This document shows, one piece after another, positions 194 through 2,743 of a stretch of DNA of 64,000 nucleotides. The position numbers and the translations under genes are program-made. Every line of letters begins with the position of its first letter. Position 1 is the stretch's first letter. Location: contig JAKQOW010000032.1 of NCBI GenBank assembly GCA_029565065.1, positions 52,102 through 116,101 on the forward strand. The letters run 5' to 3'. The notes beneath the pieces are model-generated. The model saw nothing but the letters and a program-made list of their open reading frames with translations, had not been told where the DNA came from and did not search any database. The DNA is from Acidobacteriota bacterium. GTDB taxonomy: Bacteria; Acidobacteriota; JAAYUB01.

Positions 194-268
194 TGGCTGG
201 GGAGGGAGGATTCGAACCTCCGAATGCAGGTTCCAAAGACCTGTGTCTTACCGCTTGACGACTCCCCA
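194..268 (-). tRNA. tRNA-Gln (anticodon TTG), CCA encoded
   Basis: The reverse complement folds as a cloverleaf. Acceptor stem is TGGGGAG/CTCCCCA, the D-loop is CAAGCGGTAAG, the anticodon stem-loop is CAGGT-CTTTGGA-ACCTG (anticodon UUG), and the T-arm is GGAGGTTCGAATCCTCC. It ends G-CCA and is nearly identical to E. coli tRNA-Gln. Confidence 0.9.
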
Positions 269-273
269 GCAGA

Positions 274-1173
274 TCAATTCCAGTGGGAAAACAGATTGCG
301 ACGGTACTCGTCTCGGCCGATGAACCGGGTGCGGATAATCCGACCCGGAACCGATTGGCGGCACAGGCTACGCTCCGCCTCCATGCACGCAGCCGCAGTG
401 TCAAAGAGCCCGTAAATCGAGGATCCGCTCCCACTCATCATCGTCCCGTCGGCGCCGCAATCCGCGATTTGTGATTTGATATGGAGCAACAGGGGAAAAT
501 CAGGAAAAACCGCCGCTTCAAAATCGTTCACGCCCCGGAATGCGTCCATTCGGCCGTCCGCGAGCACCCTGTGCAGGGGAGGGATTTTATTCACGAAACC
601 CTTTGTTGTCAACTGAAAATTCAGGCGTCCGTACGCCCACGCCGTGCTGACCGCCACCGGCGGGCACACCAGCACCACGTGACGGAACGGCGCGTCCGGC
701 AGCGGCACCAGCTCCTCGCCGCGACCCAACCCGAGTGCAGTGCCACCCATGAGAAAAAAGGGGACATCCGACCCCAGCCGCCCCCCCCATAGCAGCAGGT
801 CTTCCGAAGAGCACGTCAGCTCCCACAGCCGGCTCAATCCGACCAGTGTCGCCGCGGCATCCGCGCTCCCCCCGCCAAGCCCCGCCTGCATCGGAATCTG
901 CTTGCGCAGCGTGATGCGGGCGCCGCGTCGAACACCGGTCTCCACCTGAAGGAGCCGGACGGCTTTCAGGCACAGATTGTCCTCGCCCGTGGGCACGCCC
1001 GGCTGGTCGCAGCAAAACGCCAACTCCCCGTCGGCGGCAGGTTCCAGAACAACTTCGTCGGCCAGATCCACCGTCTGGAACACGGTTCGGATCTCATGGT
1101 ACCCGTCCGGGCGGGGGAACATGACCTGCAGGTGCAGGTTGATTTTCGCCCGGGCGGGTACGCGGAGCGTCAT
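274..1173 (-). CDS. ispE: 4-diphosphocytidyl-2-C-methyl-D-erythritol kinase
   Basis: N-terminal AKINLHLQV motif and the GHMP-kinase Gly-rich loop PMQAGLGGGSADAAA. Start chosen at MTLRVPARAKINL, since the ORF's upstream Met would overlap the neighbouring gene. About 300 aa. Confidence 0.85.
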   Translation of the reverse strand: MTLRVPARAKINLHLQVMFPRPDGYHEIRTVFQTVDLADEVVLEPAADGELAFCCDQPGVPTGEDNLCLKAVRLLQVETGVRRGARITLRKQIPMQAGLGGGSADAAATLVGLSRLWELTCSSEDLLLWGGRLGSDVPFFLMGGTALGLGRGEELVPLPDAPFRHVVLVCPPVAVSTAWAYGRLNFQLTTKGFVNKIPPLHRVLADGRMDAFRGVNDFEAAVFPDFPLLLHIKSQIADCGADGTMMSGSGSSIYGLFDTAAACMEAERSLCRQSVPGRIIRTRFIGRDEYRRNLFSHWN

Positions 1174-1180
1174 CGCCCGC

Positions 1181-2584
1181 TCACCAGAACAGCTCGAACT
1201 CATAGACACTGTCGCCGTTGGAGGCATCCTCGATCTCGACGATCAGCGTGTAGTTGTTGCCGCGGCCCGGCTGCTCCACGATCCGGACCGAGCCCCGGCC
1301 CGCGATCAAATTGAGGCTCACCGTCACGTCCTTGGCGGGCAGCGGATCGGAGAACGTGTGGCTGGCATCGCGGATCGGCTGGGCTGCCAGATGTTGCACG
1401 GTCAGGGTATTGCCCTTGAACATGAGCCGGTCTTTGCCGTCGACCCGACCGCGCCACCGAATCACCCCGCCGCTGCCGGCCGGCGTGGTGCCGGCCGGGG
1501 TGGTCCCGGCAGAGGTGGTGCCGGCCAAGGGCACGGTGTCGGCGGATCCATCCACTCCCCAGCGCAGGCCGAACCGGTAATCGGCGGCCCCGCTTCGGTT
1601 CGAATCATCCACCAGCACGCTCACCGCATACTTGTTGGACCAGCTGGGTTGTTCCGTGATCTTCACCGAGCCGCGCCCCGCGAACACGTGCAAGCTGACC
1701 GTCTGTTCCTGCTGGGGTAACGCCCGGCGCAACTGGCCCTTGACCCCTTCGGGCGGCTTGGACTGCAGGTGCTCCAGCGTCGCACTATTGCCGCGGATGA
1801 TCACGCGATCCACGCCGTCCACCCGTCCTTCCCAATAGAAATCCATTTCGTCGGGTGTGATCGCCTCTTCCGGGATCGTCTTCGGCCAATAGAGGTAGAT
1901 GTCGTACACGTCCGATCCGGAGAACTTCCCGTCGTCCACCCGGATGATGGCGGTGTAGCTGTTGGCGTAACTGGGCTGCTGGATGACCTCGACGGTTCCG
2001 CGCGCCCGTTCCGCGTAGAGCGCCGTCTCGACCCGGGCGGCCGGCAGGGCGGCGGTGTAGTCCACGCGCTGGTTCTTGATGGGCTGCGCGCGCACATGAT
2101 CGATGGTCACGGTGGTCCCCTGGATGCGGATCATGTCGGTGCCGTCCACCTCGCCGCGCCAATGAAAGTAATCGTGGATGTTCCGGTCCATGGTGGGGAA
2201 CAGGGCGGCCGACTGTTCCTCCCATTCGAGGCGGAGCCGGTATTTTTGGGGATAGAGCGATTCGTTGTCATTGTCGATGAGGACTTTCAGCGTGAAGTCG
2301 TTTCCCGTCGACGGCTGCTCCACAACAGTCACCGGCCCCGTTCCCTCCAACCGGGTCACGGTGACGGTCGCCGCCGCCGCGGGCAAGCCGGTCGTGGGAT
2401 CGAAGCGCACCTTCAGATTGGTGAGCGGTTCAAAATTGCGGTGCTCCACGCGAACATCAGCCCCGCGGATCAACAGATAATCCGATCCGTCGACGCTGAC
2501 TTCGACCACCGCAACGCCCGCCTGGATCGGGCTGGCGGCGATCAGGACGCCCAGCAACCATAGGCCCAGCATTGCCTTGCGCAT
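1181..2584 (-). CDS. secreted protein of four tandem ~95-aa repeats, unknown family
   Basis: Signal peptide MRKAMLGLWLLGVLIAASPIQAGVA. Then four repeats with the pattern W-G-VDG-D-IRG-T-EH-QP ... GRGSV-I-EQPS-N-Y ... DD-SG-Y-F-L-W. An AGTTPAGTTPAG linker precedes the last repeat. The antisense ORF 1769..2563 is Arg-rich junk. Confidence 0.7.
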   Translation of the reverse strand: MRKAMLGLWLLGVLIAASPIQAGVAVVEVSVDGSDYLLIRGADVRVEHRNFEPLTNLKVRFDPTTGLPAAAATVTVTRLEGTGPVTVVEQPSTGNDFTLKVLIDNDNESLYPQKYRLRLEWEEQSAALFPTMDRNIHDYFHWRGEVDGTDMIRIQGTTVTIDHVRAQPIKNQRVDYTAALPAARVETALYAERARGTVEVIQQPSYANSYTAIIRVDDGKFSGSDVYDIYLYWPKTIPEEAITPDEMDFYWEGRVDGVDRVIIRGNSATLEHLQSKPPEGVKGQLRRALPQQEQTVSLHVFAGRGSVKITEQPSWSNKYAVSVLVDDSNRSGAADYRFGLRWGVDGSADTVPLAGTTSAGTTPAGTTPAGSGGVIRWRGRVDGKDRLMFKGNTLTVQHLAAQPIRDASHTFSDPLPAKDVTVSLNLIAGRGSVRIVEQPGRGNNYTLIVEIEDASNGDSVYEFELFW

Positions 2585-2743
2585 ATCGTCCTCCTGGAAA
2601 ATACAGCGGCCATCATGTCCGCACCGGGATGACCACATAGTTATAGAGAAATGATAGCACATCTTGCCACCGGTTTCGGGCCGGACAGGATTTCCCGCTG
2701 GTGAACGACGCAGCGTGTATAATCAGGGCTCGCGGCTCAGGAG

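Follow-up and report, generated by a model that had tools for sequence, protein, structure and literature searches.

Results

The locus and its gene

The window analysed here is a stretch of 64,000 nucleotides (nt) from an Acidobacteriota genome (contig JAKQOW010000032.1 of assembly GCA_029565065.1), and its minus strand carries, in one long open reading frame at 1181..2662, the gene for a protein built of four tandem repeats. An earlier reading of the letters alone (hereafter the sequence-only reading) had described this protein as secreted and made of four repeats of about 95 amino acids (aa) of an apparently uncharacterised domain. We take 1181-2584 as the bounds of the gene because of the spacing of a Shine-Dalgarno-like AGGAGG ahead of the ATG at 2584, and because the equivalent Met is used by 18 of the 19 full-length orthologues aligned, P0013 being the exception. 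The features of the gene are as follows, where pLDDT stands for the predicted local distance difference test and HMM for hidden Markov model:

2590..2595, minus strand: Shine-Dalgarno-like AGGAGG, 5 nt before the start codon, read from the sequence
1181..2584, minus strand: coding sequence of the four-repeat protein, 467 aa plus a TGA stop at 1181-1183
2519..2584, minus strand: signal peptide, aa 1-22 (MRKAMLGLWLLGVLIAASPIQA), predicted cleavage before G23, read from the sequence
2222..2518, minus strand: repeat 1 (aa 23-121), the divergent copy
2174..2221, minus strand: linker 1 (aa 122-137), pLDDT below 50 at aa 124-128
1886..2173, minus strand: repeat 2 (aa 138-233), from alignment and HMM
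1844..1885, minus strand: linker 2 (aa 234-247)
1559..1843, minus strand: repeat 3 (aa 248-342), the sole basic copy, pI 9.2
1469..1558, minus strand: linker 3 (aa 343-372), rich in Thr/Pro/Gly/Ala, predicted disordered, pLDDT below 50 at aa 345-370
1184..1468, minus strand: repeat 4 (aa 373-467), nearest to the family consensus, modelled at pLDDT 97.7; the final Trp of the domain is the end of the protein

Judged by eye, MRKAMLGLWLLGVLIAASPIQA displays the features of a Sec-type signal, being positively charged and hydrophobic in its core and carrying a small residue at -1, with repeat 1 beginning straight after it at G23; the signal peptide proposed ahead of the repeats is thus present as a Sec-like N-terminus. 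A comparable hydrophobic stretch opens most of the full-length orthologues aligned, and domain 1 follows it directly; by a crude hydrophobicity score such an N-terminus occurs in 152 of 187 Met-initiated family proteins. From these features we infer that the four-repeat protein is exported. The mature protein would have 445 aa, with a mass of 49 kDa and a pI of 5.2. Since the protein contains no Cys, and hence no lipobox, it is not a lipoprotein.

Four copies of one domain on conserved and less conserved parts

The repeats are mutually 30-35% identical over an alignment with 17 invariant columns, and their pairwise local alignment scores range from 125 to 200, compared with 24±4 for shuffled sequences (500 each; z = 22-41). 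An HMM built from the copies of other proteins alone recovers each of the window repeats at 4e-25 to 2e-32. It was alignment, HMM and shuffle test that brought the repeats out, a BLASTP self-comparison of the protein having returned the identity match only; on these tests the four tandem repeats of ~95 aa are firmly established. The skeleton first proposed for them (W-G-VDG-D ... H ... P ... LP ... GRG-V ... EQPS-N-Y ... DD..G..Y-F-L-W) agrees with the consensus of 73 non-redundant copies, in which VDG.D, GRG, EQPS..N.YT and the terminal Trp stand out as signature motifs of the family and D10, D13, H26, R58, E65/Q66, N71 and D81 as conserved polar residues. Repeat 1 departs from this consensus in lacking W5 and G7, in having EGTGP in place of GRG, and in having DNDNE..YPQ in place of DD..G, and these departures are kept among orthologues. 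No further copy of the domain was found elsewhere in the 64-kb window.

The linker that had been noticed inside the protein lies between repeats 3 and 4, where the stretch AGTTSAGTTPAGTTPAG occupies aa ~355-371 of linker 3. This linker, with its TTPAG units, is encoded by a tandem repeat of 15 nt x 3.5 at 1474-1526, and it is the site of most length difference among the closer orthologues, with P0003 being 10 residues shorter there (467 vs 457 aa). That the tandem repeat coincides with the 10-residue difference suggests slippage-driven variation in linker length.

The gene is genuine and conserved. The first homologue search returned 35 relatives, and the ratio of nonsynonymous to synonymous substitution rates (dN/dS) is 0.16 against the orthologue at L001 (84% identical) and 0.09 against that at L007 (95% identical), so that the reading frame is conserved in relatives. 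By part, dN/dS is 0.10-0.15 for the four domains and 0.39 for the three linkers pooled. Four-copy orthologues reach down to 37-41% identity with each repeat position keeping its own peculiarities, which argues that the four-domain architecture is old and not a recent expansion. Metagenome-assembled genomes (MAGs) of Acidobacteriota provide the closest genomic matches: JAGOHA01, at 95% identity, derives from a sludge digester, and JAXGLX01, at 84%, from an anaerobic membrane bioreactor.

A large family without a name

Searching Pfam (24,736 models) with the window protein at E<=10 yielded nothing but DUF4873, Transthyretin and P2_GpR, none of which reached the cut-off, and Pfam placed nothing on the domain in 145 family representatives or in three further homologues (P0020, P0021, P0022). 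NCBIfam gave one spurious 22-bit match for the window protein, PDB sequences matched neither the protein query nor a profile of 73 copies, and a literature search with the motif WRGRVDG found no paper. Models for known surface modules, i.e., the type IX secretion system C-terminal domain, the S-layer homology domain, LysM and PEP-CTERM (Pfam/NCBIfam), had no match in the window protein, and Pfam had none in the 145 representatives; the same was true of the Pfam H_lectin model (E<=10 for the window protein). DUF971/GBBH-like_N, the label attached by JGI to the P0021 cluster, was considered and rejected, with no Pfam match at E<=10 in P0020, P0021, P0022 or the window protein. The repeat, which the sequence-only reading could not assign to a named family, accordingly has no clean Pfam match, and the searches of Pfam, NCBIfam, PDB sequences and profiles, and PDB structures with Foldseek were all empty above threshold. 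The domain is a large family named in no curated database that we searched.

Its size was gauged by searching 1.84 billion protein representatives, clustered at 50% identity, with a profile of the domain: 2,149 clusters pass at E<=1e-3, and 945 still do so at E<=1e-10. Among 204 members retrieved, a sample ranked by total score and hence favouring multi-copy proteins, the domain occurs once in 14, twice in 116, three times in 39, four times in 34 and five times in 1, and the protein ends within 5 residues of the last Trp of the domain in 180 of the 204. A second homologue search, with the domain alignment, returned only 10 small single-domain proteins, and a metagenome scan showed no architectures beyond those already known. 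The genome scan, for which an alignment of 14 sequences was used, found matches chiefly in Acidobacteriota, and also in KSB1, Planctomycetales, Hydrogenedentota and one Deferribacteres-labelled MAG. When the domain consensus was searched with tblastn, the only matches in phages were partial and marginal (E >= 0.01), and plasmids had none; a scan of viral contigs for the domain found none.

Predicted structure

The AlphaFold2 (AF2) model of a single copy, computed from an alignment of 73 sequences, is all-β with a pLDDT of 97.7 and a predicted template-modelling score (pTM) of 0.88, and in it two long strands at the N-terminus (2-18 and 21-39) precede four short ones. In the full-length model (pLDDT 81, pTM 0.49) the domains are well folded, with aa 124-128 and 345-370 disordered. 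These disordered linkers, together with the low pTM, suggest beads on a string as opposed to a solenoid, so that of the two arrangements proposed for the repeats, a β-solenoid or β-sandwich beads, the full-length model favours the latter. An outer-membrane β-barrel, an idea raised by the C-terminal Y-x-F-x-L-x-W, was rejected, given that the aromatic motif also closes every internal repeat and that AF2 yields separate soluble sandwiches instead.

Foldseek of the domain model against PDB gave no match. The sole significant match in BFVD was A0A7D3QNP9, an unnamed viral protein of 1,150 aa (E 2.3e-4, template-modelling score 0.74, 17% identity). The weak structural neighbours of the domain model are mostly sugar-binding, the best ones being lectins. 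As modelled, the fold is that of a small β-sandwich, and no solved structure is closely related to it.

Partners fused to the domain

The fusions are the only real functional evidence for the domain, and in every one of them the domain lies C-terminal to the partner module. Two ricin-B β-trefoil lectin domains precede one copy in P0034 and P0035. At its N-terminus, P0079 matches the galactophilic lectins PA-IL/LecA (E 1.2e-4, with residues 28-134 aligned to 6-111 of 125); two copies of the domain follow this module, and P0069 has the same arrangement by alignment. In P0030, a Gly-zipper (PF13441) is followed by a helical region and one copy; a Gly-zipper is typical of outer-membrane lipoproteins, which points to the envelope.

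A further partner is found outside Acidobacteriota, in a family of ~810 aa (~800-846 aa), with 231 matches from KSB1, Pirellulales/Planctomycetales, Hydrogenedentota, Omnitrophica and Bacteroidetes MAGs; the family also occurs in Deferribacteres-labelled MAGs. Its members include, besides those at L045-L048:

L017, 5880-8333: member of the ~810-aa family
L018, 5799-8339: member of the ~810-aa family
L019, 213-2705: member of the ~810-aa family
L021, 5910-8327: member of the ~810-aa family
L022, 2286-4793: member of the ~810-aa family

One copy of the domain adjoins the C-terminus in all 120 of the 120 homologues listed, followed by a conserved tail of ~15 residues (SP..LGL..PW). In a profile search of PDB, the family profile matched the α-glucuronidases of glycoside hydrolase (GH) family GH67 (E 4.5e-8) and the GH84 enzyme NagJ (E 1.2e-4). 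Individual members gave sub-threshold Pfam matches to the N- and C-terminal domains of GH67 and to DUF4838, and about 20 of the 120 listed members carry a precomputed match to PF16126. DUF4838 forms the catalytic domain of both GH163 and GH185; the GH163 enzyme BT1035 has a putative carbohydrate-binding module, or CBM, at its C-terminus (PMC10570127). Among the neighbours of the ~810-aa genes are a GH78 rhamnosidase and a GH28, together with genes for β-helix proteins and for an esterase. As judged by these profile matches, the ~810-aa proteins are likely an uncharacterised glycoside-hydrolase family.

Two further N-terminal modules were seen. Single-copy Acidobacteriota proteins of 260-300 aa (P0028-P0032, L012-L016, L034-L043) share a conserved N-terminal helical module (…IARDLSDKAQDAWN…LYVAL.GFA…) that has no Pfam or PDB match. 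A Cys/Tyr-rich module, C..P..CGYY.EGY.DG…Y.RY…FY..GY..G, stands at the N-terminus of two-copy proteins (P0026, P0027, P0083, P0089, P0105, P0111) and has no Pfam match.

Genomic neighbourhood

On the same strand, directly downstream of the repeat gene, lies the gene with which the sequence-only reading had paired it:

274..1173, minus strand: ispE, 4-diphosphocytidyl-2-C-methyl-D-erythritol (CDP-ME) kinase, TIGR00154, 211.6 bits (cut-off 138.7)

The ATG of ispE (1173) lies 7 nt past the TGA stop of the repeat gene; both the immediate adjacency and the identity of the neighbour were therefore correctly read. The two genes likely share a transcript, an inference whose sole basis is this 7-nt gap. 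Downstream of ispE is a tRNA-Gln, joined in relatives by prs, rplY and pth, and the divergent upstream side of the repeat gene is occupied by a hotdog thioesterase, a tRNA-Ala, a methyltransferase and a Ser/Thr kinase with tetratricopeptide repeats. The position upstream of ispE is kept in Acidobacteriota MAGs (L001, L007, L008, L009, L004/L010), and orthologues between 95% and 50% identical retain this slot, the gap to ispE being about 7-20 nt; the slot is lost in P0023, a four-copy homologue that is 38% identical. The conserved run of housekeeping genes at this place (window 194-1173, L001/L003/L004) comprises ispE, (tRNA-Gln), prs, rplY, pth, rpsF, rpsR, rplI and dnaB.

At L006:1-5985, the gene for P0023 is directly behind three consecutive genes for PMT_2 (ArnT/PMT-type) glycosyltransferases and ahead of an ABC-2 transporter, an arrangement that hints at a glycan-export context for the P0023 lineage.

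Discussion

Recognizing that the domain occurs behind two unrelated lectin families and with a glycoside hydrolase-like family, that it holds a C-terminal accessory position, that its size and fold are CBM-like and that its weak structural neighbours are biased towards lectins, we surmise that it is a non-catalytic glycan-recognition module, and that the window protein is a multivalent binder of a repeating extracytoplasmic glycan. We put this forward tentatively, with a confidence that comes close to evenly balanced without quite reaching it. Under this proposal, the window protein would be a soluble, Sec-exported protein in which four rigid β-sandwich modules of ~95 residues are joined by flexible linkers, and each module would be a new lectin or CBM-like domain recognising a carbohydrate polymer, with four copies per chain allowing multivalent, avidity-based binding. 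The target may be a repeating glycan of the envelope or extracellular matrix, be it the cell's own exopolysaccharide, lipopolysaccharide or capsule, or a polysaccharide of the environment. Acidobacteriota are known for exopolysaccharide production. The placement upstream of ispE-prs-rplY-pth, probably in one transcript, suggests steady, growth-linked expression, as might suit a core component of the envelope. The sequence-only reading had offered adhesins and carbohydrate or peptidoglycan binders as what such repetitive secreted β-domains often are; the carbohydrate part of this has gained indirect support from the lectin and GH-like fusions and the weak lectin fold matches, and the adhesin and peptidoglycan parts found no specific support.

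Three observations weigh against glycan recognition: 1) the resemblance of the ~810-aa family to glycoside hydrolases rests on sub-threshold Pfam matches plus a PDB match mainly to a non-catalytic N-terminal domain; 2) the gene surroundings vary from one family member to the next and show no carbohydrate-related partner that is conserved, and no shared partner gene was found around six different family members; and 3) the lectin and GH-like fusions are equally compatible with a module that tethers such proteins to the cell surface. A more ambitious version of the proposal, in which the repeat founds a new carbohydrate-binding (lectin/CBM) family with its own β-sandwich variant, widespread and centred on Acidobacteriota, serving as the C-terminal module of GH67/DUF4838-like enzymes and, in its four-copy form, as a core constitutive lectin of the envelope or matrix co-transcribed with ispE, seems to us possible and, taken as a whole, somewhat doubtful.

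The third of these observations leads to the nearest rival of glycan recognition, namely that the domain is a surface anchoring or retention module holding its lectin or GH-like passengers on an envelope polymer or an outer-membrane component in the manner of SLH, LysM or CWB2 repeats, with the four-copy protein acting as an envelope scaffold or spacer and not as a lectin for glycans outside the cell. The domain nearly always closes the protein (180 of 204, as given above) and follows the partner in all fusions, its copy number of 1 to 5 is like that of known wall-binding repeats, one architecture has the Gly-zipper typical of outer-membrane lipoproteins, and the window gene is a syntenic core gene beside housekeeping genes. 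However, the domain matches no known anchoring repeat in Pfam or NCBIfam, and if the ligand of the anchor were itself a glycan, the two proposals would merge, the main difference being which glycan or surface is bound; we regard anchoring as unlikely, if worth serious attention.

Should the domain instead mediate protein-protein interaction or oligomerisation, for example as a trimerising knob like those of phage fibres and H-type lectins, the four-copy protein might be a lattice, a periplasmic scaffold or a chaperone-like factor with no glycan ligand. We consider this improbable, in that AF2 confidently folds a single copy as a monomer, the full-length model has no fixed packing between repeats (pTM 0.49), and the recurrent fusion partners are sugar-related and not structural. 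The retention of the slot directly upstream of ispE down to 50% identity brings to mind an envelope-biogenesis factor tied to ispE, such as a LolB analogue, lolB sitting upstream of ispE-prs in E. coli; we judge the likeness to be one of position only. LolB itself was rejected, the window protein having neither a lipobox Cys nor the LolA/LolB-type open β-barrel with helical lid; the absent Cys, the dissimilar fold and the loss of synteny in P0023 make an analogue, too, very improbable.

Returning to glycan recognition, we find that the domain most resembles lectin and CBM modules in its deployment. The family is new as a domain; as a tandem-repeat extracytoplasmic binder it is of a familiar kind and does not amount to a new type of biological system. 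In H-type lectins, trimers bind sugar where their protomers meet, whereas the window copies are strung in one chain on flexible linkers. Identity to these lectins (Helix pomatia agglutinin, 2ccv; SLL-2, 3wmp; the C-terminal domain of discoidin I, 2w94) is only 7-9%; there is no Pfam match to them at E<=10, Foldseek against PDB is empty, and the window family has signature motifs of its own. Compared with CBMs appended to glycoside hydrolases, such as the C-terminal F5/F8 domain of GH163 BT1035 (PMC10570127) and the CBM3 of GH9 (8u49, 2xfg), the domain has no sequence relation to any Pfam CBM, and the window protein is devoid of any catalytic module, its glycan binding being putative.

Serial β-sandwich modules behind an export signal, with presumed multivalency, are shared with tandem-repeat glycan binders that have no catalytic domain, such as SusE/SusF-type surface glycan-binding proteins and multi-CBM or multi-lectin proteins. 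The genes for the lipoproteins SusE and SusF belong to polysaccharide-utilisation loci; unlike these lipoproteins, the window protein has no lipobox and is encoded beside housekeeping genes. The knobs of R-type pyocin fibres and phage tailspikes (6cxb, 4ru4, 7eea, 4y9v) differ in being trimeric at fibre tips, and our domain was not found in phage, plasmid or viral-contig sequences.

Acidobacteriota are abundant in soils, sediments and digesters, and are poorly characterised. About 2,000 sequence clusters that escape Pfam, NCBIfam and PDB make up a sizeable unnamed family. If glycan binding proves true, the repeat would define a new CBM or lectin family, flag the ~810-aa proteins as a candidate glycoside-hydrolase family and identify a likely matrix or envelope lectin of Acidobacteriota. 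If the domain does not bind glycans, it would still be a well-defined module that folds very readily in prediction (pLDDT 98) and deserves a Pfam entry and a solved structure.

Several MAGs (CAYPNP01, CAVZBT01) have two family members of differing architecture. At L026, two paralogous family genes lie 0.5 kb apart, one encoding 366 aa with three copies of the domain (L026:6001-7101) and the other 548 aa with four (L026:7656-9302).
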